A stretch of DNA of 43,168 nucleotides, from positions 1 to 43,168 of IMG/VR virus record IMGVR_UViG_3300018875_000009, one strand, 5' to 3'. The position numbers were made by a program, and so were the translations under genes. How positions within the stretch are numbered: position 1 is the first letter of the stretch; the number at the start of each line of letters is the position of its first letter. Below, piece after piece: positions 6,639 through 41,871 of the stretch. Under the pieces are notes generated by a model. The model saw nothing but the letters and a program-made list of their open reading frames with translations, made no database searches and was not told where the DNA came from. The DNA comes from a virus.

Positions 6639-7059
6639 CCCGCGGCCTACCTGGGACGAGTATTTCCTAGGGATCGCCCAGGCCGTGAGCACACGCGGAG
6701 ACTGCACCCGCGCGCAGGTTGGGGCGGTCATGGTTCAGGTGTTGGCCGGCCTCCCCACAGGGGTTGGCTTCGGGTACAACGGCCCCCCGCCGGGGGTGCC
6801 CGGTTGTCTCTCTGCTGGGGCGTGCCCTCGGGGCCGTCTGACCGCCGAAGAGTGCCCGCCGAATAGCGACTACTCGAACTGTACGGCCGATCATGCCGAG
6901 CGGAACGCGGTCCGTCTGACCCCTACCGAGCACCGCCAGGGCGCGACTCTCTACGTGACGCGCGAGCCGTGCCCGAGCTGCCGCACGCTGATCACGGCGG
7001 CCCAGATTGGCCGTGTCGTGTGGCCCGATGGTGAATGGCTTCCGCCACCCGGCCACTGA
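6631..7059 (+). CDS. Deoxycytidylate (dCMP) deaminase
   Basis: Zinc-binding motifs HAERNA and PCPSC. N-terminal WDEYFLGIA. Confidence 0.85.
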   Translation: MGDPRPTWDEYFLGIAQAVSTRGDCTRAQVGAVMVQVLAGLPTGVGFGYNGPPPGVPGCLSAGACPRGRLTAEECPPNSDYSNCTADHAERNAVRLTPTEHRQGATLYVTREPCPSCRTLITAAQIGRVVWPDGEWLPPPGH

Positions 7060-7084
7060 TACTCTCGACCCTGCACCTTCCCCT

Positions 7085-7097
7085 TCTCTCGCTGACA
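7085..7097 (-). repeat. Orphan inverted copy of the early-leader motif TGTCAGCGAGAGA, followed by SD-like GAAGGGGAAGG (7075-7085)
   Basis: The reverse complement of 7075-7097 reads GTGTCAGCGAGAGAAGGGGAAGG. No credible downstream minus-strand ORF. Confidence 0.6.
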
Positions 7098-7114
7098 CGG
7101 TGAAGGTTGGTGCG

Positions 7115-7146
7115 ACGGCCCCCGCTTCGGCGGGGGCCGTTTTCGT
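7115..7146 (+). terminator. Intrinsic terminator after the nucleotide-metabolism operon
   Basis: 11-bp GC stem (ACGGCCCCCGC / GCGGGGGCCGT), TTCG loop, then TTTTCG. Confidence 0.8.
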
Positions 7147-7176
7147 ATGCCCTGATCCTAGCATTTGATCCGGCCC

Positions 7177-7232
7177 GTTTAAACGGTTGACACACGTTCC
7201 AAATGACAGTAACGTTCTTCCTGTCAGCGAGA
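7177..7232 (+). promoter_or_regulatory. Early promoter cassette A: GTTTAAAC 7177-7184, -35 TTGACA 7187-7192, 17-nt spacer containing CCAAATGACAG, -10 TAACGT 7210-7215, leader TGTCAGCGAGA 7222-7232
   Basis: Hexamers and spacing read directly. The same architecture recurs about 10 times. Confidence 0.7.
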
Positions 7233-7274
7233 CGGACGCCGGAACGGCCGGCTTCCGGAGAGAAGGGGAAGAAC

Positions 7275-7931
7275 ATGCGAGAGATCACCCGCGAAGAGTG
7301 GCTTCACCTGGCTATCGAAGCCCTGCGCCCGGAGTTCGAGAAGATCGAGTTCCCGCTTCCCGAGAAGATTCATGTCAGCGTGGGCTTCGGCTACGGCGCT
7401 AAGCGCGAGTCGGCGAAGATCCTCGGCCAGTGCTGGGCGCGTCGGGTTTCCGAGGACGGCGTGAACCACATCTTCATCAGCCCCGAGCTTTCCGACGAAG
7501 CCCGCGTTCTCGACGTGCTGATTCATGAGCTGGTGCATGCGGCTGACGACTGCATGAGCGGCCACAAGGGGGCCTTCGCGAAGGCCGCTAAGGCTCTCGG
7601 CCTCACCGGGAAGATGACCGCCACGGTGGCCACCCCGGAACTGACCGAAAAGCTCCGGGAGTTGGCTAAGGCCCTCGGCCCCTACGCTCACGCCACCCTG
7701 TACCCCATGGGCAAGCCGATTCAGCCGAGGGAAGAGCCGAAGCCGGAAGACCCGGAGACCCCGGAAGAGCCCCCGGTTTCGTCCGGCCCGAAGAAGCAGG
7801 GAACCCGCATGATCAAGGTTGCCTGCAAGCCGGATTGCGGGTGCGGCGGGTACGTGGTCCGCACTACCGCGAAGTGGCTCGAAGTCGGAATGCCGATCTG
7901 CCCCATGGGAACGGTCATGGAACTTGCCTGA
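7275..7931 (+). CDS. SprT-like zinc metalloprotease
   Basis: HELVH (HExxH) in an SprT-like context (ILGQCW...IHELVHAADD...GHKGAFAK), with a C-terminal Cys cluster. SD GAAGGGGAAG lies upstream of ATG 7275. Confidence 0.65.
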   Translation: MREITREEWLHLAIEALRPEFEKIEFPLPEKIHVSVGFGYGAKRESAKILGQCWARRVSEDGVNHIFISPELSDEARVLDVLIHELVHAADDCMSGHKGAFAKAAKALGLTGKMTATVATPELTEKLRELAKALGPYAHATLYPMGKPIQPREEPKPEDPETPEEPPVSSGPKKQGTRMIKVACKPDCGCGGYVVRTTAKWLEVGMPICPMGTVMELA

Positions 7932-7943
7932 CAGCCCCTCACG

Positions 7944-7974
7944 CGGCCCCCTTCGGGGGGCCGTTCGTGTTTCC
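7944..7974 (+). terminator. Intrinsic terminator
   Basis: CGGCCCCC / GGGGGCCG stem, TTCG loop, T-rich tail. Confidence 0.75.
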
Positions 7975-7985
7975 GGGCCTGATCC

Positions 7986-8042
7986 AAGCTGTCATTTGAC
8001 ATGTCGTGTTTAAACGCTGTAACTTCTTCCCTGTCAGCGAGA
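7986..8042 (+). promoter_or_regulatory. Early promoter cassette B: AAGCTGTCATTTGACA, -35 TTGACA 7996-8001, 18-nt spacer with GTTTAAAC 8008-8015, -10 TAACTT 8020-8025, leader TGTCAGCGAGA 8032-8042
   Basis: Read directly. Confidence 0.7.
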
Positions 8043-8065
8043 CACAAACCCGAAGGGGAAGACCA

Positions 8066-8506
8066 GTGCAGACCATGAAGATTTCCGAGACGGCCAACGT
8101 CGCCGACTCGAAGGGCGTGTTCCTGTTCGGCGGGAAGGCCGCCGGTCGGAAGGGGCCGAAGAAGGATCTGGTGCCGGTCAAGGTCGAGCTTCACGCTCGG
8201 GGTGTGGCGAAGCTCGTCAACGCCGAGGACGGTTCCGAGGTTCTTCACTCCCGCGTAGGCACGGTCGTCTTCGCCGGTCCCGTGAACGGCAAGCCGGCCG
8301 AGGCCGAGGGCAAGCCGAAGCGGCCCCGAAAGAAGGCCGTGAAGGCCCCTGAGAAGGCCGAGAAGGCGAAGGTCGAGGAGAAGCCCCAGGCCCCCGCTAA
8401 GCGGCCCGGAAAGGCCCCCGCGAACTTCGTAGACCTGGCCCGGTCGGCGAACACTGAAGCGGCCCGCCGCTACTGGCAGAGGGTTGTAGACCAGTACGAA
8501 GGCTGA
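8066..8506 (+). CDS. Hypothetical protein with a Lys/Pro/Ala-rich basic C-terminal half
   Basis: GTG 6 nt after SD GAAGGGGA (ATG 8075 is the alternative). KPKRPRKKAVKAPEKAEKAK tail. Confidence 0.55.
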   Translation: MQTMKISETANVADSKGVFLFGGKAAGRKGPKKDLVPVKVELHARGVAKLVNAEDGSEVLHSRVGTVVFAGPVNGKPAEAEGKPKRPRKKAVKAPEKAEKAKVEEKPQAPAKRPGKAPANFVDLARSANTEAARRYWQRVVDQYEG

Positions 8507-8517
8507 CCGCTCCAAAC

Positions 8518-8550
8518 GGCCCCCGCTTCGGCGGGGGCCTTCTTCGTCTC
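8518..8550 (+). terminator. Intrinsic terminator
   Basis: GGCCCCCGC / GCGGGGGCC stem, TTCG loop, TTCTTCGTCTC tail. Confidence 0.75.
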
Positions 8551-8551
8551 G

Positions 8552-8609
8552 GAAGCTGTGATTTGGAATCTGCGTTTAAACGTGCTACGTTTCTCCTGTC
8601 AGCGAGAGA
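8552..8609 (+). promoter_or_regulatory. Early promoter cassette C: GAAGCTGTGATTTGGAA, -35 TTGGAA 8563-8568, 17-nt spacer with GTTTAAAC 8574-8581, -10 TACGTT 8586-8591, leader TGTCAGCGAGAGA 8597-8609
   Basis: Read directly. Confidence 0.7.
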
Positions 8610-8649
8610 CACCGGGAAAGGCCCGGTGCACAACCTGAAGGGGAAGACA

Positions 8650-8841
8650 ATGAACGTTTCCGGCGAGTGGGTCATCCTCGGTCACGGCCGTTCCGAGAAG
8701 GACGTTTACATGGGTCCGGGTACCTACTCGGAGATTGCCGAAGTCGTTCAGCTGTGGAACGACACTCACACCGAGCGTGAGCAGCGCGGGGAGGCCCCGC
8801 GCGGTTCTCTCCAGCGCTTCTACATGAAGCGCGTGGGCTAA
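8650..8841 (+). CDS. Hypothetical protein (63 aa)
   Basis: ATG after SD GAAGGGGAAG. Flanked by its own promoter cassette and terminator. Confidence 0.5.
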   Translation: MNVSGEWVILGHGRSEKDVYMGPGTYSEIAEVVQLWNDTHTEREQRGEAPRGSLQRFYMKRVG

Positions 8842-8854
8842 CCGCTCACCCCAA

Positions 8855-8886
8855 CCCCCCGCTTCGGCGGGGGGTTTCCTGTTTCT
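8855..8886 (+). terminator. Intrinsic terminator
   Basis: CCCCCCGC / GCGGGGGG stem, TTCG loop, TTTCCTGTTTCT tail. Confidence 0.8.
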
Positions 8887-8897
8887 CGACTCAGACC

Positions 8898-8955
8898 GTT
8901 TACACGCTTGCGCTCGATTCCAAATGACAGTATCGTTTCCCTTGTCAGCGAGAGA
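8898..8955 (+). promoter_or_regulatory. Early promoter cassette D: GTTTACAC 8898-8905, -35 TTGCGC 8908-8913, 17-nt spacer containing CCAAATGACAG 8920-8930, -10 TATCGT 8931-8936, leader TGTCAGCGAGAGA 8943-8955
   Basis: Read directly. Confidence 0.65.
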
Positions 8956-8994
8956 AGGGGGGCCGGAAGGCCCGGCCCCCGGAAGGGAAACGCA

Positions 8995-9102
8995 ATGCAC
9001 TTCGGAGACCCGCGCTTCAAGCTCGTCTGTAAGTGGCACAAGGACTGCGACGGAAACGTTCGCCAGGCCCACCGGTTCGAGTGGGTGAAGGTCGAGAAGT
9101 AG
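8995..9102 (+). CDS. Hypothetical mini-protein (35 aa, Cys/His-containing)
   Basis: ATG after SD GGAAGGGAAA and a leader hairpin. Has its own promoter and terminator. Very short, so uncertain. Confidence 0.35.
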   Translation: MHFGDPRFKLVCKWHKDCDGNVRQAHRFEWVKVEK

Positions 9103-9108
9103 CCCCGA

Positions 9109-9139
9109 GGGCGGCCCGAAAGGGCCGCCCTTCTTCTTT
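9109..9139 (+). terminator. Intrinsic terminator
   Basis: GGGCGGCCC / GGGCCGCCC stem, GAAA loop, TTCTTCTTT tail. Confidence 0.8.
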
Positions 9140-9144
9140 GCCCC

Positions 9145-9200
9145 GAAGCTAAACTTGAAATGGTATCGCTTCAGATGCTAGATTCCCAATGTCAGCGAGA
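9145..9200 (+). promoter_or_regulatory. Early promoter cassette E: GAAGCTAAACTTGAAA, -35 TTGAAA 9155-9160, 18-nt spacer, -10 TAGATT 9179-9184, leader TGTCAGCGAGA 9190-9200
   Basis: Read directly. Confidence 0.65.
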
Positions 9201-9228
9201 AACGGCCTTCGGGCCGGAAGGGAATCCT

Positions 9229-9885
9229 GTGCAGCGAACCGATAAGGCCGCCGCTTCCGTCGTTGCGGGCATTGCGGCGGGTGCCTTCACCCTCTCCTAC
9301 GAAGCTCTTCGGAACGTCTACCTGGGGAGCGCCGGAAACGGTGACCTCTCCCCCATCTACCCCCTGATAGTCGAAGGGTTTGTCACGGTGGCCGTGTGGG
9401 TGGCCTACCGGCTTCGTGACTACGGCTGGAAGGCCACGGCCTACCCGTGGACCCTGGCGGCCCTCTTCTTCGCCTACTCGCTGTGGTCGAACGCCCTCCC
9501 GGACACCGTTCCGGCCCCGGTCATCCTTGGCGTTCCCTCGGTTGCCGTCCCCCTGGCCGTCCATCTCTTCACGCACCTTCTGAAGAAGCGTGAGCCCGTG
9601 GGGGCCGAGCTGGTCGCCGAGCTGGTCGCCGAGGGCGGCCAGGACGACGAAGAGCCCCTGTCCGATGACCCGTGGCCGGCCTGGGAGCCCCCGGCGGTTC
9701 AGGCCCCCATCTTCGCGGCCTCGGTCGAGAAGATTCCCAGCGTCACGGCGGCCACGGATTCCAGCGCCATGGTCCGCGCCTGGGCGCGTCAGAACGGCTA
9801 CGCCGTGAAGGACACCGGACGCATCCCGGATGCCGTCCTGAAGGCTTACGCGAAGGCTCACGGAGGGGAGTTGGTCACCCCTTGA
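9229..9885 (+). CDS. Membrane protein (DUF2637-like N-terminal helices) with a C-terminal Lsr2-type DNA-binding domain
   Basis: GTG after SD GGAAGGGA. Three or four hydrophobic helices. C-terminus VRAWARQNGYAVKDTGRIPDAVLKAYAKAH parallels the Lsr2 C-terminus encoded at 10020-10352. Confidence 0.65.
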   Translation: MQRTDKAAASVVAGIAAGAFTLSYEALRNVYLGSAGNGDLSPIYPLIVEGFVTVAVWVAYRLRDYGWKATAYPWTLAALFFAYSLWSNALPDTVPAPVILGVPSVAVPLAVHLFTHLLKKREPVGAELVAELVAEGGQDDEEPLSDDPWPAWEPPAVQAPIFAASVEKIPSVTAATDSSAMVRAWARQNGYAVKDTGRIPDAVLKAYAKAHGGELVTP

Positions 9886-10019
9886 AGCTCGGGTGGTGCA
9901 TGACGGGGCATCACGGCACCTGCCCCGTCCGCACGGTAAGTGGAATCGCTTGTGGCTGTAGTTGCCACGCTGGTAAGAAGTCCAACGTAATCGAACTCTT
10001 CCCGAAGAAGGAAAACGCC

Positions 10020-10352
10020 ATGGCTCAGAAGGTCGAAGTGAAGCTGATTGACGACCTCGACGGTTCCGAGGCGACTCAGACCGTCCTGTTCGCCCTCGAC
10101 GGGAAGACGTACGAGATCGACCTGAACGACGGCCACGCGGCCGAACTCCGCGACGCCCTGGCCCCGTACCTCGGGGCGGCCCGGAAGGTCTCTGGCGCCC
10201 GTGGGGGCGTTCGCCGGATCGGGTCGGCGAAGCCCGCTGAAGACTCGGGCACGATCCGGGAATGGGCGCGACAGAACGGCTACGAGGTGAGCGACCGGGG
10301 CCGCGTGCCCGCGAGCGTCCGTGAGGCGTACGAGAAGGCGAAGGCCGCCTGA
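10020..10352 (+). CDS. lsr2: Lsr2-family nucleoid-associated protein
   Basis: N-terminus MAQKVEVKLIDDLDGSEATQTVLFALDGKTYEIDL. C-terminus IREWARQNGYEVSDRGRVPASVREAY (RGR motif). SD GAAGGAAAA upstream. An in-frame ATG at 9900 would add a Cys-rich extension. Confidence 0.85.
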   Translation: MAQKVEVKLIDDLDGSEATQTVLFALDGKTYEIDLNDGHAAELRDALAPYLGAARKVSGARGGVRRIGSAKPAEDSGTIREWARQNGYEVSDRGRVPASVREAYEKAKAA

Positions 10353-10372
10353 GCGGCGACCAGCTCGACTAC

Positions 10373-10400
10373 GGCCCCCGCTTCGGCGGGGGCCTTCTTC
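10373..10400 (+). terminator. Intrinsic terminator (first of a tandem pair)
   Basis: GGCCCCCGC / GCGGGGGCC stem, TTCG loop, TTCTTC tail. Confidence 0.75.
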
Positions 10401-10430
10401 ATGCCCAACAAGCCCTAGGAAGCCCTGTAC

Positions 10431-10462
10431 GGCCCCCGTCCCTGCGGGGGCCTTCTCTGTGT
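10431..10462 (+). terminator. Second tandem terminator-like hairpin
   Basis: GGCCCCCG / CGGGGGCC stem, 6-nt loop, TTCTCTGTGT tail. Confidence 0.6.
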
Positions 10463-10554
10463 CCGCACGCGTCCTGAACGGCCCTGTACGGCCCGCACAG
10501 CCCTTCCGCGGCCCCCTGGCCGGCCATCCGGTTCCGCGCACTCCCGCACCCTCG

Positions 10555-10600
10555 CAAGCTGTGATCTGGAACCTGTGTAAACGGGTGGCCCTGATCACTC
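10555..10600 (+). promoter_or_regulatory. Degenerate (probably decayed) cassette copy: CAAGCTGTGATCTGGAA + GTGTAAAC, with no usable -10
   Basis: Aligns with cassette C, but the -35 is CTGGAA, the palindrome is GTAAAC and the -10 position reads GCCCTG. Confidence 0.5.
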
Positions 10601-10609
10601 ACGTATAGC

Positions 10610-10639
10610 TTGCGCGCACACTCCAAATGTAAGTAACGT
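10610..10639 (+). promoter_or_regulatory. Promoter of the ORF-free region: -35 TTGCGC 10610-10615, 18-nt spacer containing CCAAATGTAAG, -10 TAACGT 10634-10639
   Basis: Same architecture as cassettes A, D and G, but the downstream leader motif is absent. Confidence 0.55.
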
Positions 10640-10645
10640 CGCTCC

Positions 10646-11110
10646 CGCACGGCTGATCTTGGCCGTGGCCGCGTACGACGGCCCCTCGGATGGCACCGGG
10701 GGGAAACGACATGCCAAGGGAGAGCGGCCCCAGGAAACCGCCCTGCGGCCCCCGAGTGACGACCGGGGGAGTCCAGACCAGTCGGGAGTAAGAGAACGGC
10801 TCTCCCTCACCAAAAGACCGACCCCGGTTGCCTCGGGAGGTAGAGAACGAACGGCATACCGAGTGACGAACAGACCGGGTGAAGGCAGGCCCGGACCGGT
10901 GGCCCCGCAGAGGGGTCGGGCATGCGGCCCCTAGCTTCGATCACACATCCCGGCCCTGCGGTGAGAGTAATTCCCTCAACACCGGTTCTGAAGGCGACGA
11001 CCGCGACGGGCGTACCGGAGAGAATCCCCTAGAGCGTGAGTAAGCCCCTTGGGGGCTCTTTAACTTGCGCTCTAGGGGGGTTCACTAGCTCCCCCCGCTC
11101 GGGGCACCCG
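10646..11110 (+). ncRNA. Candidate structured non-coding transcript (unclassified family)
   Basis: Own promoter. No ORF with an SD or coding-type GC3. Dense hairpins, including an 11-bp perfect long-range stem 11026-11036 / 11068-11078. Internal repeats GAGTGACGA x2 and AGAGAACG x2. Confidence 0.35.
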
Positions 11111-11167
11111 GAGCCTGGGAAAAGAGCAAGACGAAGAACAACAGAACAACCCAACCACCTAAGCCAC

Positions 11168-11215
11168 TAGACAGCCATTCCAAATGACAGTATGGTTTCC
11201 CCTGTCAGCGAGAGA
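11168..11215 (+). promoter_or_regulatory. Early promoter cassette G: -35 TAGACA 11168-11173, 17-nt spacer containing CCAAATGACAG 11180-11190, -10 TATGGT 11191-11196, leader TGTCAGCGAGAGA 11203-11215
   Basis: Read directly. Confidence 0.7.
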
Positions 11216-11237
11216 AGCGACAAGGAAGGGCGCACCA

Positions 11238-11435
11238 GTGGCGAAGGTTCGTAGGACCCCGGAAGGTCTGGCCGAGGCAATCAAGGCAGCAGGGTTCAAG
11301 GTCGAGCGACGGAATCACGGATGGCTGTGCTTCCCGGACGACAAGACGAAGCCTGCCGAATGGATCAGCCGGAACACGGGAGGCAGGGGCCAGAGGAACA
11401 ATGAGGCCGTAGCGAGAAGGTTCGGGGTTCTGTAA
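11238..11435 (+). CDS. Hypothetical protein (65 aa)
   Basis: GTG after SD AAGGAAGGG, in frame with ORF 11184-11435. Confidence 0.5.
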   Translation: MAKVRRTPEGLAEAIKAAGFKVERRNHGWLCFPDDKTKPAEWISRNTGGRGQRNNEAVARRFGVL

Positions 11436-11445
11436 CCTCCCCCAC

Positions 11446-11499
11446 GGGGGCCGGGCGACCGGCCCCCTTCACCGTGTCAGCGAGGAAGAAGGTTTAAAC
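11446..11499 (+). promoter_or_regulatory. Hairpin + leader motif GTGTCAGCGAG (11474-11484) + SD + GTTTAAAC (11492-11499), with no recognisable promoter
   Basis: GGGGGCCGG/CCGGCCCCC hairpin, then TTCACC-GTGTCAGCGAGGAAGAAGGTTTAAACC-ATG. Confidence 0.5.
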
Positions 11500-11500
11500 C

Positions 11501-11803
11501 ATGCGTGAGTATCAGGGCGTTGTGCGGGTGAGGCACCAGGGAAAGAACCTGGCCGAGTCCCCCGACCAGCTCGACGACGTGACCGGCGCTCTGGTCGAGT
11601 ACGGGGCCACGGCGCAGATGGGCGACGGATGGACCGAGTGGACCATGACCGTGCGCGTGCCGACCCTGTACGACGTTGCGGCCGTGGCCGGCCGAACCGT
11701 GCGCGACGCGTACGAAAACGCGGGATGGTCCGTAACCCTGGTGCGCGTGGACGCGTGGCAGGTAGCCGAGTGGGAGCACGCGAAGGGCTTGACCGACGAG
11801 TGA
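11501..11803 (+). CDS. Hypothetical protein (100 aa)
   Basis: ATG after a purine-rich SD. High GC3. Confidence 0.55.
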   Translation: MREYQGVVRVRHQGKNLAESPDQLDDVTGALVEYGATAQMGDGWTEWTMTVRVPTLYDVAAVAGRTVRDAYENAGWSVTLVRVDAWQVAEWEHAKGLTDE

Positions 11804-11807
11804 CCGA

Positions 11808-11835
11808 GGGCCGGGAGACCGGCCCTTTCCCTTTA
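11808..11835 (+). terminator. Intrinsic terminator
   Basis: GGGCCGG / CCGGCCC stem, GAGA loop, TTTCCCTTTACC tail. Confidence 0.7.
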
Positions 11836-11839
11836 CCTC

Positions 11840-11898
11840 GAAGCTGTCATTTGAAATCTCGTTTAAACGGTGCTACCGTCTCCCTTGTCAGCGAGAGA
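11840..11898 (+). promoter_or_regulatory. Early promoter cassette H: GAAGCTGTCATTTGAAA, -35 TTGAAA 11851-11856, 17-nt spacer with GTTTAAAC 11861-11868, -10 TACCGT 11874-11879, leader TGTCAGCGAGAGA 11886-11898
   Basis: Read directly. Confidence 0.7.
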
Positions 11899-11934
11899 AG
11901 CCCCCGGCAACGGGGGCGAGAGAAGGGAAGGCCA

Positions 11935-12117
11935 ATGGCCGTTTCGCTCCACAAGGGAGTTCACCGGTGGGTTCACTTCTACGAGGAGAACCTGACCTTC
12001 TGCCGCTTCTGCGGAACCGTCCTCGACATGGGCGACTCCCCCGCTAGCGACGACTGCACCCCCCTGCATGACGCGCACTGCGCTTGCGACCGGTGCCGAG
12101 AGGTTCGGAACCGCTAG
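11935..12117 (+). CDS. Hypothetical Cys-rich protein (60 aa)
   Basis: ATG after SD GAGAAGGGAAGG and a leader hairpin. CRFCG...CACDRC motifs. Confidence 0.45.
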   Translation: MAVSLHKGVHRWVHFYEENLTFCRFCGTVLDMGDSPASDDCTPLHDAHCACDRCREVRNR

Positions 12118-12126
12118 CGAAACCGA

Positions 12127-12158
12127 GGGGCCGGGAAACCGGCCCCTTCTTCGTTTCC
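12127..12158 (+). terminator. Intrinsic terminator
   Basis: GGGGCCGG / CCGGCCCC stem, GAAA loop, TTCTTCGTTTCC tail. Confidence 0.8.
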
Positions 12159-12160
12159 CT

Positions 12161-12220
12161 GAAGCTGTCATTTGACACGTAGCGTTTAAACGTCGTAGAG
12201 TTTCCCTTGTCAGCGAGAGA
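12161..12220 (+). promoter_or_regulatory. Early promoter cassette I: GAAGCTGTCATTTGACA, -35 TTGACA 12172-12177, 18-nt spacer with GTTTAAAC 12184-12191, -10 TAGAGT 12196-12201, leader TGTCAGCGAGAGA 12208-12220
   Basis: Best match in the window to a sigma-70/HrdB-type promoter. Confidence 0.75.
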
Positions 12221-12265
12221 ACGGCCCCTCGGGGCCGAGCTTGATAACTCAAGAGGGGAACACCG

Positions 12266-12673
12266 ATGAAGGTCTTTCGAGTCGGCGGAACGACGGACCA
12301 GATCACGACGTGTGAGCTGTGCGGGAAGCCCGAGCTTCGCGGAACGGTTCAGATGATCGAGCTTGACGCGGACGGGAACGACTTCGCAGACCACTACTTC
12401 GGCACTAGCTGTGCGGCGAAGGCCGCCGGGTGGACGCAGAAGGATGTGAGGCTGGCGGCCAGGGCCGCCGACCGGGCGAAGAAGGAAGCCGCCGAAAAGG
12501 CGCGGCGGGAAGCCGAGTACGAAGAGATGGTTCACCGCAACAAGGCCATGGACTGGTGGCTTCAGGAGAACTTCGGGACGGACGACATACACGAAGCGGC
12601 GAAGATCGCCGGTATGAGCTTCGTCCGCCTGTCCTGCGCTTTCAGCGACGAATACGCGCGCTGCCAGCCGTAG
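12266..12673 (+). CDS. Hypothetical protein (135 aa) with N-terminal CxxC and a charged helical middle
   Basis: ATG after SD AAGAGGGGAA. High GC3. Confidence 0.6.
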   Translation: MKVFRVGGTTDQITTCELCGKPELRGTVQMIELDADGNDFADHYFGTSCAAKAAGWTQKDVRLAARAADRAKKEAAEKARREAEYEEMVHRNKAMDWWLQENFGTDDIHEAAKIAGMSFVRLSCAFSDEYARCQP

Positions 12674-12682
12674 AGAACACAG

Positions 12683-12710
12683 AAGGGGCGGCCCACGGGG
12701 GCCGCCCCTT
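12683..12710. terminator. Bidirectional terminator between convergent genes
   Basis: 11-bp stem AAGGGGCGGCC / GGCCGCCCCTT with a 6-nt loop. Confidence 0.7.
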
Positions 12711-12763
12711 CTGCCTTGCTCGCACCGCCCGCCGGGGGGACTGGACACGGGCGGGGAGCTGGT

Positions 12764-13000
12764 CTAGGTGATCCGAGGCTCACCCGGTAGCGGGTCCGTG
12801 CCGACCGGCCGCGTGTCCTCGGGGTGTCCGTAGCTCTTGTGCACTGCCATGGCGTTAGCGGCCCTCTGGGCGGCCTGGGGGTCACCCTTCCGGGAGACCT
12901 CCCGAAGTCGCTTCACCAGCTTCGCGCACTGAAGGCAGTCTTTCGGGTCCACGTCGCCCCCGCGCGGGGCAACGAGACTCAACAGTTCTTCAACCGACAC
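12764..13000 (-). CDS. Small CxxC-x28-H protein, paralog 3 of a tandem family
   Basis: GTG after SD GGTGAGGAAAA. CLQC...KG...VH aligns with the two upstream paralogs. Confidence 0.55.
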   Translation of the reverse strand: MSVEELLSLVAPRGGDVDPKDCLQCAKLVKRLREVSRKGDPQAAQRAANAMAVHKSYGHPEDTRPVGTDPLPGEPRIT

Positions 13001-13666: not shown

Positions 13667-13689
13667 CTCTCGCTGACGTTGTCGCTCTA
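13667..13689 (-). promoter_or_regulatory. Minus-strand -10 (TAGAGC, 13684-13689) plus leader motif GTCAGCGAGAG (13667-13677) for the divergent small-gene operon
   Basis: The reverse complement reads TAGAGC-GACAAC-GTCAGCGAGAGG-CCAGGGC-ATG. No clear -35. Confidence 0.5.
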
Positions 13690-13713: not shown

Positions 13714-13738
13714 GGTACCTTTGGAGAGTCAGCGAGGG
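13714..13738 (+). promoter_or_regulatory. Fused partial motif pair GGTACCTTTGGAG + AGTCAGCGAGGG upstream of the HTH-TPR gene
   Basis: Read directly; 31 nt upstream of ATG 13769. Confidence 0.45.
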
Positions 13739-13768: not shown

Positions 13769-15100
13769 ATGACCGAGCGACGGCCGAACGAAGGGCTGAA
13801 GCGGCTACTCGGGGAGGCTGATTGGACCCTTGGACAGTTGGCCACGGCCATCAACCGGGCCGGGGACGAAGACGGGGTGAACGTTCGTTGCGACAAGAGC
13901 AACGTCAGTAAGTGGGTCGGGGGCACCACGCCCAATGAGAAGGTGCGGCCGTACGTCCTCGAAGCCCTCTCCCGCAGACTCGGCCGTCAGGTGACGCACG
14001 CCGAGGCCGGCCTACCGGCCCCGAAGGGAGACCCGACCGCCCCCGGTACCGTTGAAGGACTGGTGGACCTCGGAAGGGCGGACATGGACCCTTCACGCCG
14101 AAGCGTGCTCGGGGCCGGGCTGTACTCCGTCGCCCTCACGATCCCCGGTTGGCCGGACGTGCTAGGTCGAGCCGAGGCAGTGAAGAAGGGCAAAGGGCTT
14201 CGAATCGGCTTCCCCGAAGTCGACATGGTTGTTCAGATGACCGAGAAAGTCTCTGAGCTTGACGACCAGTTCGGGGGCCGCACGGCCCGGCCCATGGCCG
14301 CTACCTTCCTGGTGAATCAGGTGGTGCCCTACCTTCGAGCGGAAGCCCCCGAGGACGTACGGAAAGCCATGCTGTCCGCCGCTTCCGACCTGTGCTACCT
14401 GACCGGGTACATGGCCGTAGACGAAGGGCTTCACGGCCTCGCGCAGCGCTACTACCTGAAGGCCCTCGAACTGGCCGGGGCCGCCGAGGATCACCTGACC
14501 TACTGCACCACCCTTCGAGGGATGAGCGTTCAGGCCGTCGACCTCGGTCACGGGAAGCGAGCCATGGAGCTAGCCGACGCTGCCGCCGCCGCTTCCCCGA
14601 AGGCCGGCCCCCGCATGCTGGCCTTCCTCACCGGGCAGCAAGCGCACGCCGCAGCACAAGAGGGCGACAAGGCGACAGCCCTTCGCCGCATCCGGGAAGC
14701 CGAAGCGGCTATGGACCGCGCCGAGAGCCGAGGGAAGCCCCTCGGGAGCTACGATCCCGCCGCTCTCAACTACCACGTATCGCAAGTGCGTTACGAGCTG
14801 GGCGACGTTCACGGGTCCATCGAAGCCCTACAGGAGAGCAACCGGCTTCGCTTCTCCGTGTACCGCCGGGGCAACGTGCGCATGCGCGCCCTTCTCGCCG
14901 AGCGTCAGCTTCAAGTCGGGCACCTCGAAGAAGCCGTGAAGACCTGGGGCGAAGCCCTCGACGACTACCCGTTGGTTCACTCGGGCCGAGCTGACGAACG
15001 CTTCAAGAACATGCGTCGACTCATCCGGCCCCACCTTCGGCACCACGGGGCCGCCGAGCTGTTCGAGCGGGCACAGCTGATGAAGCCCGCGACCGTGTAA
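13769..15100 (+). CDS. XRE-type helix-turn-helix regulator with a C-terminal TPR-like domain (candidate immunity repressor)
   Basis: N-terminus LKRLLGEADWTLGQLATAI...SNVSKWVGG is an HTH. The C-terminal 250 aa are Ala/Leu-rich repeats (YYLKALELAG...). Divergent from a small-gene operon. Confidence 0.7.
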   Translation: MTERRPNEGLKRLLGEADWTLGQLATAINRAGDEDGVNVRCDKSNVSKWVGGTTPNEKVRPYVLEALSRRLGRQVTHAEAGLPAPKGDPTAPGTVEGLVDLGRADMDPSRRSVLGAGLYSVALTIPGWPDVLGRAEAVKKGKGLRIGFPEVDMVVQMTEKVSELDDQFGGRTARPMAATFLVNQVVPYLRAEAPEDVRKAMLSAASDLCYLTGYMAVDEGLHGLAQRYYLKALELAGAAEDHLTYCTTLRGMSVQAVDLGHGKRAMELADAAAAASPKAGPRMLAFLTGQQAHAAAQEGDKATALRRIREAEAAMDRAESRGKPLGSYDPAALNYHVSQVRYELGDVHGSIEALQESNRLRFSVYRRGNVRMRALLAERQLQVGHLEEAVKTWGEALDDYPLVHSGRADERFKNMRRLIRPHLRHHGAAELFERAQLMKPATV

Positions 15101-24082: not shown

Positions 24083-24100
24083 TTTTCAAATGACACCTTC
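24083..24100 (-). repeat. Minus-strand copy of the dispersed motif (GAAGGTGTCATTTGAAAA)
   Basis: The reverse complement of 24083-24100 was read directly. Sits between the major-tail stop and the next start. Confidence 0.75.
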
Positions 24101-28004: not shown

Positions 28005-28022
28005 GCTCCAAATGATAGTTTC
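28005..28022 (-). repeat. Minus-strand copy of the dispersed motif (GAAACTATCATTTGGAGC), 5-6 nt upstream of the capsid ATG
   Basis: The reverse complement was read directly. Its GGAG doubles as the capsid SD. Confidence 0.8.
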
Positions 28023-32673: not shown

Positions 32674-32748
32674 TGGGGCGCACTGCGGGATTCGAACCCG
32701 CGACGCCTCCCGGAAGGGGAGGAGTTTTAGCCGCTAAACTAAGTGCGC
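32674..32748 (-). tRNA. tRNA-Glu(UUC)-like gene with a non-canonical anticodon loop (CCUUCCG) and an encoded CCA
   Basis: Hand-folded cloverleaf: acceptor GCGCACU/AGUGCGC, D arm GUUU-AGCGGCUA-AAAC, anticodon arm CCUCC-CCUUCCG-GGAGG, T arm GCGGG-UUCGAAU-CCCGC. Confidence 0.6.
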
Positions 32749-32804
32749 GTTCCCTCCGTCAGGTGATCAGCCCGAGTTTCAGGAACAGGGGAGCTACCCC
32801 ACTG

Positions 32805-32877
32805 TGGGAACGGAGGGAATCGAACCCCCGACGCACCGGATTTCACCCGGTAGCTCTTCCGACTGAGCTACGTTCCC
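32805..32877 (-). tRNA. tRNA-Phe(GAA)
   Basis: Hand-folded cloverleaf: acceptor GGGAACG/CGUUCCC, D arm GCUC-AGUCGGAA-GAGC, anticodon arm ACCGG-GUGAAAU-CCGGU, T arm GGGGG-UUCGAUU-CCCUC. No encoded CCA. Confidence 0.8.
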
Positions 32878-33432: not shown

Positions 33433-33647
33433 GTCTGCAACCTCTCTCGGTCTGAAATTCCCCTCTCTGGGAAACGGTTCTGTAATTCGCGCGGAGTCAT
33501 CCGCGCTGGTCAACGGCCTACACGCTTGCTCACTCCGTTATTCGGAGCAATCCGAATTCCCACGAACTCAGGCGAACCCCCGCGCGTTCACAAAGCAGGA
33601 AGGGCGCGGGTGCGGGGAAGGCTCCCCGGAAAGTTTCAGATCCCCCC

Positions 33648-33661
33648 TCCGGCTCATTTGA
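33648..33661. repeat. Perfect 14-bp palindrome GGCTCATTTGAGCC in the terS-upstream non-coding region
   Basis: Read directly. Shares the CATTTGA core with the dispersed motif. Confidence 0.7.
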
Positions 33662-33821
33662 GCCGAGAATCTGAGCCAGCTAGCTTGACAATGCTTGATC
33701 TGGTGTGTTCTCGGCTACGCCGTTGGCATGGCTGGGATCACTTCGGTTAGGGAGTGAGAGCCGGACCATGCGAGCTGGTGAGGGATTGAAGCAGGGGCGG
33801 GGTGCTGCCTTGACGGCACCC

Positions 33822-34145
33822 CTAGTAGCGTTTCCCTTTTCGGTAGTCGTTCTCTCGTCTTGTGTTGCATGATCGACAGAGAACCCGAGTGTTATCGAGG
33901 GTGTTGGTTCCACCATCCTTCAAAGGAAGGATGTGGTCTCCGGTTAGGTCTTTGTCTGTACCGCAGAAAGAACAGTAGGGCTGAAGTCTGATGGCTTCTG
34001 CCCTTACCTTCTGCCATTGGTAGTCGTACAGCCCTGGCCTTCGAGTGTTCTTACTCTTGTGCTTTCGTGGTGCGGTAGCACATTGAGCACAGGGCACCCC
34101 GAGGGGGTGCAGCCTTTTGTGGCGGGGGCACATGCTGTAAGGCAT
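33822..34145 (-). CDS. HNH endonuclease (packaging-associated position)
   Basis: CAQC...CSFCG...GDHILPLKDGGTNTLDNTRVLCRSCN. SD GAGAGGGGGTGG. Confidence 0.85.
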   Translation of the reverse strand: MPYSMCPRHKRLHPLGVPCAQCATAPRKHKSKNTRRPGLYDYQWQKVRAEAIRLQPYCSFCGTDKDLTGDHILPLKDGGTNTLDNTRVLCRSCNTRRENDYRKGKRY

Positions 34146-34477
34146 GGGGCCACCCCCTCTCTAGGGGGGTACCCCCTTGGTCTTCATTCTGTATAGACCT
34201 GTTAAGGGCCAGGGCTTCTAATGCCCTGGCCTTAGATAGCTTCCTTATAGGGGCGGCCTCGGGAGGGCCGCCCTTCTGCTACTGCTCTCTTCCGTTCGCA
34301 GTAGCTCTAGAGCTATCTCTGTCCCCCGATCCCCCCGGCTTCCGTTCGCTCGCTCCGCTCTCTCACTACAGCCGACCCCCTTACCCCCTAGCTGTCGCCA
34401 GGGGTAGACCTGTTGGTTCGGCAGAGGCCCCACAACGGGGCCTCTAACCTGGGGTTCCTTGATCCCGCCAGGGCAGC

Positions 34478-34551
34478 GAAGCTATGTTTTGGAATGCCAG
34501 CGAGGAACGGCCCAGGAGGGGCCGGGAGCTAGCAGAGAAGCCCGTTTAAAC
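34478..34551 (+). promoter_or_regulatory. Dispersed motif GAAGCTATGTTTTGGAAT (34478-34495) fused to leader-like GCCAGCGAGGAA, then a hairpin and GTTTAAAC (34544-34551)
   Basis: Read directly. First element of the + arm. Confidence 0.55.
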
Positions 34552-34571: not shown

Positions 34572-34781
34572 GTGTTCCTGCCCCCGAAGACTGTTGCTGC
34601 CACGAACCGCTATGTCGAGAACGGCCCCGAGGACCGGAACCCGGTCTTCAAGCACGACTTCCGGGGGCGCGTCGACTTCTCTGGCGGAATTCTTCGCTAC
34701 AGCACGACCACCCCGGCCCCGGCTAAGAAGAAGGGCAATGCCGCTTCGGTCATGGCCCGTATTGCTCAGGCCCGAAGCTGA
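34572..34781 (+). CDS. Hypothetical protein (69 aa)
   Basis: GTG after SD AGGAAAGAGG. High GC3. Its TGA stop lies inside the next motif copy. Confidence 0.55.
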   Translation: MFLPPKTVAATNRYVENGPEDRNPVFKHDFRGRVDFSGGILRYSTTTPAPAKKKGNAASVMARIAQARS

Positions 34782-34791
34782 TATTTGGAAT
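34774..34791 (+). repeat. Copy of the dispersed motif (GAAGCTGATATTTGGAAT)
   Basis: Read directly. Confidence 0.75.
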
Positions 34792-39296: not shown

Positions 39297-39354
39297 GAAG
39301 CTGTTATTTGACACCGCCAGGGGCGTCGAGCGAAGATATACCTGTCAGCGAGGG
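39297..39354 (+). promoter_or_regulatory. Cassette K upstream of whiB: GAAGCTGTTATTTGACA, -35 TTGACA 39308-39313, weak -10 GAAGAT 39332-39337, leader TGTCAGCGAGGG 39343-39354
   Basis: Read directly. The -10 matches only at A2 and T6. Confidence 0.5.
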
Positions 39355-40312: not shown

Positions 40313-40330
40313 GAACCTGTTATTTGGAAA
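40313..40330 (+). repeat. Copy of the dispersed motif (GAACCTGTTATTTGGAAA)
   Basis: Read directly; 13 nt upstream of ATG 40344. Confidence 0.75.
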
Positions 40331-41853: not shown

Positions 41854-41871
41854 GAAGCTGTCATTTGAAAA
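41854..41871 (+). repeat. Copy of the dispersed motif (GAAGCTGTCATTTGAAAA). GTTTAAAC follows at 41929-41936.
   Basis: Read directly. Confidence 0.8.

Follow-up and report, generated by a model that had tools for sequence, protein, structure and literature searches.

The 43,168-nucleotide (nt) stretch of viral DNA analyzed here (IMG/VR record IMGVR_UViG_3300018875_000009; hereafter, the window) contains, between 7.1 and 12.7 kb, an array of small gene cassettes, each with its own promoter and its own terminator. The predicted transcripts of these cassettes begin with the same 9-nt sequence, GTCAGCGAG (the tag), which is followed, usually after a GC hairpin, by a Shine-Dalgarno (SD) sequence. 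Upstream of the array lies a reverse copy, CCTTCCCCTTCTCTCGCTGAC, which is exactly complementary to the leader with its SD, GTCAGCGAGAGAAGGGGAAGG, and which forms part of a candidate gene for a small stem-loop RNA (Table 1). These features lead us to propose, tentatively, that essentially all early and regulatory messages of this virus carry a tag of 9-13 nt and are jointly governed through it by one antisense RNA acting in trans. Arms complementary to the SD sequences (anti-SD arms), embedded in the promoters, would add a second layer of control that silences read-through, and the whole would constitute an RNA-level regulon for immunity or shut-off, situated beside a structured, hitherto undescribed RNA of ~490 nt. 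That the genes of the array are early genes is something that we infer.

A conserved 9-nt tag at the predicted 5' end of the cassette transcripts

An initial annotation of the window, made from the sequence alone, had described the array and its conserved 5' leader. The array is real, as judged by the excess of its motifs over chance, the uniform geometry of its promoters, and its terminators. In the window GTCAGCGAG is present in 11 forward and 3 reverse copies, far above chance, and the 13-mer TGTCAGCGAGAGA, when up to 2 mismatches are allowed, gives 13 matches where 1.5 are expected, a number that was reached in none of 100 shuffles. The 13-mer had been regarded as invariant. However, it is exact in only five of the nine array copies, and the invariant core is limited to the 9-mer: the T that precedes this core varies, and positions 10-13 read AGA, ACG, AAA or GGA.

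Whether the leader is conserved independently of the open reading frames (ORFs) that it precedes was a question raised by the initial annotation, and comparison with ~18 relatives (described below) bears this independence out. Over ~100 cassettes of these relatives GTCAGCGAG is nearly invariant, the sole variant being GTCAGCGAA in contig L069, while the SprT-like protein encoded by the first cassette is 71-85% identical among relatives. In the same cassettes the -35 elements, spacers, -10 elements, hairpins, and SD sequences have drifted. Furthermore, two conserved copies of the tag lack a promoter: one at 11476, 5' of an ORF for a protein of 100 amino acids (aa), and the reverse copy at 7076-7096. 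These observations bear on the idea that the leader is simply part of an efficient promoter module, active in initiation or promoter escape, which has spread by duplication and gene conversion and provides no separate control point. The cassettes are clearly paralogous, and the fixed distance between leader and -10 element suits a promoter-linked element. Nevertheless, this explanation is improbable, given the drift of all other parts of the module around a 9-mer that has hardly changed, and the conservation of copies that have no promoter at all.

The tag precedes the start codon by 16-48 nt. Its conservation sets in precisely at the predicted start site (+1); just before this site, all four bases occur. 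In the primary transcripts, structure prediction leaves the 9 nt at the start of the leader largely unpaired (0.73). The onset of conservation at +1, the copies without a promoter, and the continuity of the SD-like half in the reverse copy (see below) together argue for a function of the tag in RNA.

Between tag and SD, a hairpin is present in 50 of the 63 unique cassettes. Its loop varies (GGAA, GAAA, UUCG, AACG, GCAA, and others), and the stems are not conserved in sequence either. The SD sequence, which had been described as conserved, is so only in part: GAAGGGGAAG is exact in three cassettes, but the others carry relatives such as GGAAGGGAA. A linear conserved element and, after it, a GC hairpin, both close to the 5' terminus of the message, in units that all have a terminator after them, are also what would be seen if leader and hairpin formed a nut (boxA-boxB) or put antitermination site that allows read-through of the terminators. 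Such a role is highly improbable. The hairpin is absent from 13 of the 63 cassettes and unconserved where it is present, Rfam gave no match, and transcripts that read through are predicted to be translationally silent (see below), which would defeat the purpose of antitermination.

A candidate anti-leader RNA upstream of the array

The coordinates given by the initial annotation for the cassettes and for the related copies of the leader (11476, 13669-13677 on the minus strand, 13728, 34495, and 39344) are correct, but the reverse copy at 7076-7096 was not listed. This 21-mer is identical in 13 relatives and, with the next base, makes up 22 invariant columns in an alignment whose mean column identity is 73%. 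In two further relatives 1-2 nt are inserted in the 21-mer, and CTCGCTGAC and CCTTCCCCTT are retained. In the relatives, a constant distance of ~135 bp separates the reverse copy from the first forward leader, which lies downstream. The reverse copy is preceded by a -10-like hexamer in which the T, the A, and the last T are invariant in the 13-relative alignment; the middle bases vary. The conservation of both 21-mer and hexamer persists in relatives whose upstream gene differs from the dCMP deaminase homologue present in the window.

The RNA that would be made from this sequence is predicted to fold with a minimum free energy of -44.5 kcal/mol (z = -5.7 versus shuffles), and its strong terminator is followed by a GUUUU tail. 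The outer stem has undergone compensatory changes (GCACC/GGUGC versus GUUCC/GGAAC versus GGUCC/GGGCC), and its G.U pairs suit the plus strand only. Over the alignment, 95.3% of the cells are paired, compared with 86.8% after column shuffles (0 of 500 shuffles were as high) and with 41-57% when the partners are slid by 1-3 columns. UCUCGCUGAC (loop element CUCGCUGAC) is exposed in the loop of the consensus fold, with CCUUCCCCUUC adjacent to it.

Exact complementarity between small RNA and leader, counted from +1, extends over 9-17 nt across the cassettes, and over 21 nt of leader plus SD. The promoterless copy at 11476 lies within CCTTCACCGTGTCAGCGAG (11466-11484), 19 nt that are exactly complementary to the small RNA; the match reaches this length because the flank CCTTCACCGT is also shared. 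Among seven relatives, the flanks of targets of this 11476 type fit the small RNA of their own phage better than those of other phages (10.1 versus 7.8 nt, p = 0.03). The promoter region of the small RNA has no copy of the dispersed motif found at the cassette promoters (see below), which would fit expression that is independent of a repressor. When the whole window was searched against Rfam, two tRNAs alone reached the gathering threshold, and the C4 antisense RNA family was not matched; in a search with positions 7000-12800 nothing came near the threshold, with both small RNA and leader unmatched.

Several points weigh against regulation by an RNA of this kind. The -35 region of the small RNA, ATGGCTTCCGCCA, is unlike TTGACA, and this RNA may be nothing but the 3' end of the operon that lies upstream. 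For the covariation in the outer stem, the independent events are few, with two main clades and two singletons. Because the core tag is nearly invariant everywhere, compensatory change between leader and anti-leader has nothing to covary. The energies that RNAduplex assigns to pairing of the small RNA with its targets are better than a GC-rich background by just 0.2-3 standard deviations; scores of this type discriminate poorly in GC-rich DNA. Finally, a protein that binds GTCAGCGAG as DNA would also explain the invariance.

This last explanation is the main rival and a serious one. It holds that positions +1 to +9 of all early and regulatory promoters are the binding site of a phage repressor, perhaps a monomer, that blocks RNA polymerase; the promoterless copies would block elongation like the stoperators of phage L5, and the reverse copy would be another binding site. 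The tag is indeed asymmetric, present in many copies, and co-oriented with transcription on both strands, and it is found at the divergent promoters of a putative regulator gene (13669 and 13728). Cluster A mycobacteriophages provide a precedent for such an arrangement (PMC9283540, PMC6550527). We nonetheless regard a DNA site as unlikely. Such a site requires neither that conservation start at +1 nor that the spacing to the -10 element be rigid. In the reverse copy, conservation spans the tag and the SD-like half as one continuous 21-mer, whereas in most cassettes these halves are split by a hairpin of variable length; pairing between RNAs tolerates an insertion of this kind, but a rigid protein-DNA site does not. 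In addition, the reverse copy forms part of a covarying stem in which G.U pairing works on just one of the strands. The positions expected for operators and stoperators are already occupied by another motif, GAARCTnTCATTTGRAA, and immunity operators usually diverge among relatives, which GTCAGCGAG does not.

If the tag acts in RNA, its partner might also be a protein, either an RNA-binding factor or a ribonuclease of phage or host, that recognizes GUCAGCGAG and sets the stability, processing, or translation of the message. The complement at 7076-7096 would then be fortuitous or serve as a decoy for a different factor. A protein partner agrees with conservation that begins at +1 and with the position of the internal copy at 11476, which directly follows a hairpin, as would be expected of a processing site that recreates the same 5' end. 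There is precedent in the T4 nuclease RegB, which inactivates many early messages through a short common sequence (PMC3014915). However, family searches with the array proteins recognized no RNA-binding protein or nuclease, and a protein partner leaves unexplained why all relatives retain an exact 21-nt complement equipped with a -10-like hexamer, a terminator, and a covarying stem; we consider it distinctly unlikely. The initial annotation had suggested a common post-transcriptional or initiation-level control point. In outline, a function at the level of RNA is supported, but the best candidate for the partner is an antisense RNA rather than a protein or the initiating nucleotide.

Two other explanations of the reverse copy were considered and rejected. 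A minus-strand gene served by 7076-7096 would have to be a short ORF with a GTG start, which is not conserved in the relatives and has an SD-GTG spacing of 0-2 nt. A minus-strand promoter at this place would lack a TAnnnT at the right distance. A further copy of the anti-leader, complete with terminator and covarying stem, is found at 6890-6910 of L055 (Streptomyces yaanensis), with no adjacent array in the 8 kb of this locus that were covered; this element may be a prophage remnant or represent a different arrangement.

Promoters, terminators, and dispersed motifs

Within the array there are eight promoter-bearing units, each of which has a TAnnnT sequence 6-7 nt before the G of GTCAGCGAG. 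In all eight, a -35-like hexamer that agrees with TTGACA at 3-6 of its 6 positions is located 17-18 nt upstream of the -10 element, and the same geometry is found in ~65 cassettes of the relatives. The promoters can be sorted into three layouts. In layout A (+1 at 8033, 8598, 11887, and 12209), a forward copy of the dispersed motif supplies the -35 element, and the palindrome GTTTAAAC is present in the spacer. In layout B (7223, 8944, and 11204), the dispersed motif is inverted within the spacer and abuts the -10 element, and the palindrome, as GTTTAAAC or GTTTACAC, lies 5' of the -35 element, except at 11204, where it is missing. Layout C (9191) has a degenerate motif at -35 together with an extended -10, TGCTAGATT. 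Since the three layouts share both the -35/-10 geometry and the distance to GTCAGCGAG, the promoters are probably of the host sigma-70 (HrdB) type, with transcripts predicted to begin at the G of GTCAGCGAG.

The dispersed motif, CTGTCATTTGRAA, is matched 19 times in the window, in either orientation, where 0.66 matches are expected. With its flanks it reads GAARCTnTCATTTGRAA and is asymmetric, spanning 13-18 bp. It overlaps the -35 element in five promoters, and 3-4 copies are inverted within promoter spacers. Six more copies are present in gaps within operons, 5-15 nt before start codons, and these are co-oriented with transcription on both strands. A phage repressor most likely binds this motif, and the 443-aa regulator encoded at 13769-15100 is a candidate for that role. 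The notion that the specificity of the motif switches between phages (CTGTCA versus CTAGTA) was dropped, as single relatives mix both variants.

The palindrome GTTTAAAC occurs nine times in the window, compared with 0.17 expected, often as CGTTTAAACG. It had been assigned to the promoter spacer; this holds for four of the eight promoters (sites 8008, 8574, 11861, and 12184), but in the others it is placed elsewhere or is missing. It lies 5' of the -35 element at 7177, appears as GTTTACAC at 8898, and is missing from the promoters at 9191 and 11204. Two copies are within 5' untranslated regions, one at 11492, between SD and ATG, and one at 34544. The palindrome could be the site of a second regulator or an AT-rich site for the Lsr2-like proteins of the phage.

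A scan for terminators gave 18 terminator-like sites versus 6.9 expected. One such site closes each unit, and the tails are a mixture of T and C.

Pre-start bases complementary to the SD sequence

In several cassettes, the 10 nt that precede +1 (the last bases of the -10 element and the next 6-7 nt) are complementary to the SD and spacer of the same cassette. Examples are CGTTTCCCTT/AAGGGAAACG at 8944, which is exact, GTTCTTCC/GGAAGAAC at 7223, and GATTCCC/GGGAATC at 9191. In orthologues of the 9191 unit the last pairing changes to GGTTCCC/GGGAACC, and among orthologues A-U pairs are replaced by G-C pairs via G.U intermediates. Column-wise covariation could not be used across paralogous cassettes, given register shifts and the misalignment of the SD region by MAFFT, and tests based on swapped partners and on shuffles were used instead. 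In the window the mean duplex energy is -11.2 kcal/mol for own pairs versus -9.0 kcal/mol for swapped partners (p = 0.0017). The same test gives p values from 0.0008 to 0.2 in other phages and p < 0.001 when all 65 cassettes are pooled. When each 10-nt segment is compared with its own shuffles, 52 of 60 pairs are better (mean z = -1.45).

An RNA that arrives from upstream would contain both arms of this helix. In read-through transcripts, modeled with a start 40 nt upstream, the helix forms in seven of the nine window cassettes. For the SD, the unpaired fraction is predicted to drop in eight of nine folds, typically from ~0.6 to ~0.2. The pairing is strong at 8944, 9191, and 12209. On the other side, it is weak at 8598 and 11204, the fold at 11887 goes in the opposite direction, and pyrimidine-rich tracts have some tendency to pair with purine-rich ones in any case. 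A transcript from the cassette's own promoter lacks the 5' arm, while read-through hides the SD; read-through RNA is therefore predicted to be translationally silent. Silencing of this kind should operate in cis in a subset of the cassettes, provided that the predicted +1 is right.

Gene content of the array and a module without a leader

The positions of the cassettes, their parts, and the other features of the window are collected in Table 1.

Table 1. Positions of the candidate small RNA, the cassettes, and related features in the window (ORF coordinates precede products; motif, dispersed motif)
Feature	Position (strand)	Promoter and motif elements	Transcript elements	ORF and product	GC hairpin terminator
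Candidate anti-leader RNA, 72 nt	7073..7145 (+)	TACTCT, -10-like, 7060..7065 (+), 6-7 nt before stem base G7073	stem-loop 7073-7113; complement of leader + SD 7076..7096 (+)		7117-7138, then U tail
Cassette 1	7150..7964 (+)	motif 7150-7162; GTTTAAAC 7177-7184; -35 TTGACA 7187-7192; inverted motif 7197-7209; -10 TAACGT 7210-7215	+1 G7223; hairpin 7233-7257; SD 7262-7271	7275-7931, SprT-like protein, 218 aa	7943-7964
Cassette 2	7989..8539 (+)	motif 7989-8001 including -35 TTGACA 7996-8001; GTTTAAAC 8008-8015; -10 TAACTT 8020-8025	+1 G8033; without hairpin; SD 8052-8061	8066-8506, 146-aa protein, function not assigned	8518-8539
Cassette 3	8556..8876 (+)	motif 8556-8568 (-35 TTGGAA); GTTTAAAC 8574-8581; -10 TACGTT 8586-8591	+1 G8598; hairpin 8610-8628; SD 8637-8646	8650-8841, 63-aa protein	8853-8876
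Cassette 4	8898..9132 (+)	GTTTACAC 8898-8905; -35 TTGCGC 8908-8913; inverted motif 8918-8930; -10 TATCGT 8931-8936	+1 G8944; hairpin 8958-8980	8995-9102, 35-aa Cys-rich peptide	9107-9132
Cassette 5, polycistronic	9146..10452 (+)	-35 TTGAAA 9155-9160; extended -10 TGCTAGATT 9176-9184	+1 G9191; hairpin 9203-9216	9229-9885 and 10020-10352 (see text)	10373-10394, 10431-10452
Leaderless module	10559..11140 (+)	motif-like 10559-10571, 10622-10633; -10 TAACGT 10634-10639			
Cassette 6, bicistronic	11168..11830 (+)	-35 TAGACA 11168-11173; inverted motif 11178-11190; -10 TATGGT 11191-11196	+1 G11204	11238-11435, 65 aa; 11501-11803, 100 aa	~11808-11826
Cassette 7	11844..12148 (+)	motif 11844-11856; GTTTAAAC 11861-11868; -10 TACCGT 11874-11879	+1 G11887; hairpin 11900-11917	11935-12117, 60-aa Cys-rich protein	12125-12148
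Cassette 8	12165..12710 (+)	motif 12165-12177 (-35 TTGACA); GTTTAAAC 12184-12191; -10 TAGAGT 12196-12201	+1 G12209; hairpins 12222-12237, 12240-12253	12266-12673, 135-aa protein	~12685-12708
Leader copy, divergent	13669-13677 (-)			minus-strand gene	
Leader copy, divergent	13728-13736 (+)			13769-15100, 443-aa regulator	
Leader copy, one mismatch	34495/34496		GCCAGCGAG		
Promoter and leader copy	39301..39352 (+)	dispersed motif at -35	leader copy 39344, GTCAGCGAGGGAAGG	heads long operon	
Dispersed motif in operon gaps	467-479, 34778-34790, 40317-40329, 41858-41870 (+)				
Dispersed motif in operon gaps	24084-24096, 28006-28018 (-)				
GTTTAAAC sites	7177, 8008, 8574, 11492, 11861, 12184, 34544, 39234, 41929				

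The units had been described as monocistronic. Most appear to be so, but the 9191 unit carries a gene at 9229-9885 together with an Lsr2 gene, the 11204 unit carries two ORFs, and an additional module has neither leader nor ORF. The product of 9229-9885 is a DUF2637 membrane protein with a C-terminal Lsr2 DNA-binding domain, and that of 10020-10352 is a complete Lsr2 homologue with dimerization and DNA-binding domains; two Lsr2-type genes thus share one unit. In the 11204 unit, the internal copy of the leader (11476-11500) is not preceded by TAnnnT, and the hairpin before it (~11446-11468) is without a T tail. Small Cys-rich ORFs are found at 8995-9102 and 11935-12117, and a further possible frame lies at ~9882-10019 (+), upstream of Lsr2. 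These are without a family match; they may encode zinc-ribbon peptides.

The leaderless module, with its promoter at 10622-10646, is located inside the array, between the Lsr2 gene and cassette 6, and contains no GTCAGCGAG, SD, or conserved ORF. The sequence downstream (~10647-11140, ~490 nt) is 72-78% identical in 11 relatives, with insertions and deletions that are not multiples of three. Its consensus structure comprises 115 base pairs, of which 22 show compensatory changes, and is closed by a long-range helix. The region is apparently transcribed as a structured non-coding RNA. No match to Rfam was found at E values up to 10, and this may be a new large phage RNA.

Among the leader copies outside the array, the promoter-bearing unit at 39301-39352 is conserved in L002, L012, and L042. 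Directly 5' of the degenerate copy GCCAGCGAG there is a region of ~1 kb (~33440-34450) with few convincing ORFs and several hairpins, which may hold attachment or regulatory sequences.

Source of the DNA and its relatives

The 443-aa regulator matches phrog_10886, annotated as "transcriptional regulator," and has homologues in the Streptomyces phages Ponzi, SV1, and Raleigh. As homologues of this protein are confined to Streptomyces phages, the window, judged from its sequence, is a temperate Streptomyces phage or prophage, and it belongs to a hitherto undescribed lineage. In Ponzi the regulator is 66% identical, GTCAGCGAG is absent, and GTTTAAAC occurs once. When positions 7000-13000 were compared by megablast with 50,697 phage records, no match was obtained. 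A sensitive blastn search matched the SprT-like gene alone, at ~72% identity, in Arthrobacter, Microbacterium, and Streptomyces phages, and the terminase has distant relatives only (<42% identity). Beside the minus-strand structural operon lie genes for tRNA-Glu(UUC) and tRNA-Phe(GAA), at 32674-32877 (-).

Scans for the leader pattern and for proteins recovered the ~18 relatives, a set made up of Streptomyces prophages and of viral contigs. The IMG/VR relatives are L002, L012, L019, L031, L037, L042, L047, L061, L069, and L071, with L001/L028 being more distant; the prophages are in Streptomyces yaanensis, S. antimicrobicus, and three genomes of Streptomyces sp., and there is one metagenome contig. 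All of these have a common layout, in which one reverse copy of the 9-mer is followed, ~135 bp on, by 7-12 forward copies across ~6 kb. After the forward array, the relatives have a reverse copy of the 9-mer that serves a minus-strand gene. In the metagenome collection, a protein-based scan found no relative; a scan with a 16-nt pattern gave 120 matches, mostly due to chance, and one true relative, whose leader is identical. Scans of the relatives and of the metagenome collection found no relative with a variant leader, the one-copy variant GTCAGCGAA in L069 aside. A search of the literature on the motif and on leader or promoter repeats in Streptomyces phages found nothing relevant.

Proposed mechanism

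The array can be pictured as a set of insulated expression units for the early genes of a temperate Streptomyces phage, with control at three levels. We judge the chances of this complete model to be evenly balanced. At the first level, each unit would be transcribed from a promoter of the host sigma-70 (HrdB) type, the dispersed motif would serve as a repressor site that overlaps this promoter, and a terminator would close the unit. At the second level, in a subset of the units, a transcript that enters from upstream would fold so that the ribosome site is hidden, while a transcript from the unit's own promoter, which lacks the 5' arm, would be translatable. Neighboring units would in this way be insulated translationally, on top of the insulation provided by the terminators.

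The third level would involve the small RNA. Transcripts would start with the single-stranded tag GUCAGCGAG(AGA), usually followed by a GC hairpin and then by the SD. The small RNA loop UCUCGCUGAC would pair first with the 5' tag, and CCUUCCCCUUC would then pair with the SD across the hairpin. This pairing would block translation of all tagged messages and perhaps trigger their decay. Depending on when the small RNA is made, the outcome would be either a threshold for early-gene expression in the lysogen or the shut-off of early genes later in infection.

Comparison with known regulatory systems

The initial annotation considered gene-by-gene repetition of promoters, leaders, and terminators to be unusual for a phage early region. 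This needs to be tempered, since phiC31, also a temperate phage of Streptomyces, has near-identical promoters repeated gene by gene, many copies of its operator, and tail-less GC hairpin terminators between small genes. The sequences, however, are unrelated. In the phiC31 genome the promoter core GGTTGCCGAC occurs 10 times and the operator (CIR) core CTCACGTGAG 15 times, and neither is present in the window; conversely, GTCAGCGAG and GTTTAAAC are absent from phiC31. The promoters of phiC31 depart from the TTGACA/TAnnnT type, and gp12 is annotated in its record as a phage sigma factor. A tblastn search of the window at E values up to 0.01 gave no homologue for gp12 or for the c repressor. Moreover, the phiC31 operator is palindromic, whereas the dispersed motif of the window is asymmetric, and no common transcribed leader or anti-leader was found in phiC31.

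A parallel for the dispersed motif may be the stoperators of L5 and other cluster A mycobacteriophages, asymmetric sites of ~13 bp that are present in many copies, at the early promoter and in short gaps between genes, and are co-oriented (PMC9283540, PMC6550527). GAARCTnTCATTTGRAA resembles these in asymmetry, copy number, and promoter overlap, and may do so in gap positions and orientation. It differs from them in sequence and in having 3-4 copies inverted in promoter spacers.

Control by read-through has a counterpart in T4. In the long transcripts of T4 genes e, soc, 49, and I-TevI the ribosome site is hidden, and a promoter located within the 5' arm gives rise to short transcripts in which it is free (PMC3014915). 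The same promoter-in-stem arrangement is predicted for several cassettes of the window. However, in T4 it concerns single late genes, whose expression is delayed, whereas in the window it would concern several units in series and would insulate neighbors from one another. In addition, the predicted helix of the window encloses the leader and often a hairpin, and the support for it is statistical and weak in some cassettes.

In the IS10 RNA-OUT/RNA-IN system, the loop of the antisense RNA meets the very 5' end of the message. The candidate RNA of the window shares with IS10, P22 sar, P1/P7 c4, and lambda OOP the form of a small stem-loop RNA with a terminator and a loop complementary to the translation start of its target. 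The phage members of this group have been reviewed (PMC12197685). The known phage antisense RNAs have one or two targets, mostly opposite or adjacent to their own gene, whereas the candidate described here would act in trans on about a dozen messages through a common tag. In this respect it is similar to T4 RegB, which as a single device inactivates many early messages through a short sequence at their translation starts (PMC3014915). RegB, however, is a protein that cuts at GGAG, and the element of the window is situated at the 5' end of the message rather than at the SD.

Short conserved sequences repeated upstream of many phage genes are also found in two other groups. The start-associated sequences of cluster K mycobacteriophages are conserved repeats that abut the start codon and include the SD, unlike the tag of the window, which is located at the 5' terminus of the predicted transcript. 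Halovirus HF2 has intergenic promoter repeats upstream of many genes, which are archaeal promoters (PMC8707807). Each of the mechanisms considered here has precedents, but none was found for their combination or for one RNA that addresses about a dozen messages via a 5' tag.

Implications for gene regulation in Streptomyces phages

The timing of phage gene expression is usually attributed to repressors, sigma factors, and antiterminators. If confirmed, the arrangement described here would mean that one small RNA can address a whole class of messages via a 5' tag, which would provide a simple and evolvable threshold or shut-off for about a dozen genes. It would also be the first such example in Streptomyces phages, in which post-transcriptional control is almost unexplored; the review of phage antisense RNAs lists none from Streptomyces (PMC12197685). 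In practical terms, the cassettes combine promoter, leader, and terminator in compact, insulated parts with a predicted guard against read-through, and as such they would suit synthetic biology in Streptomyces.

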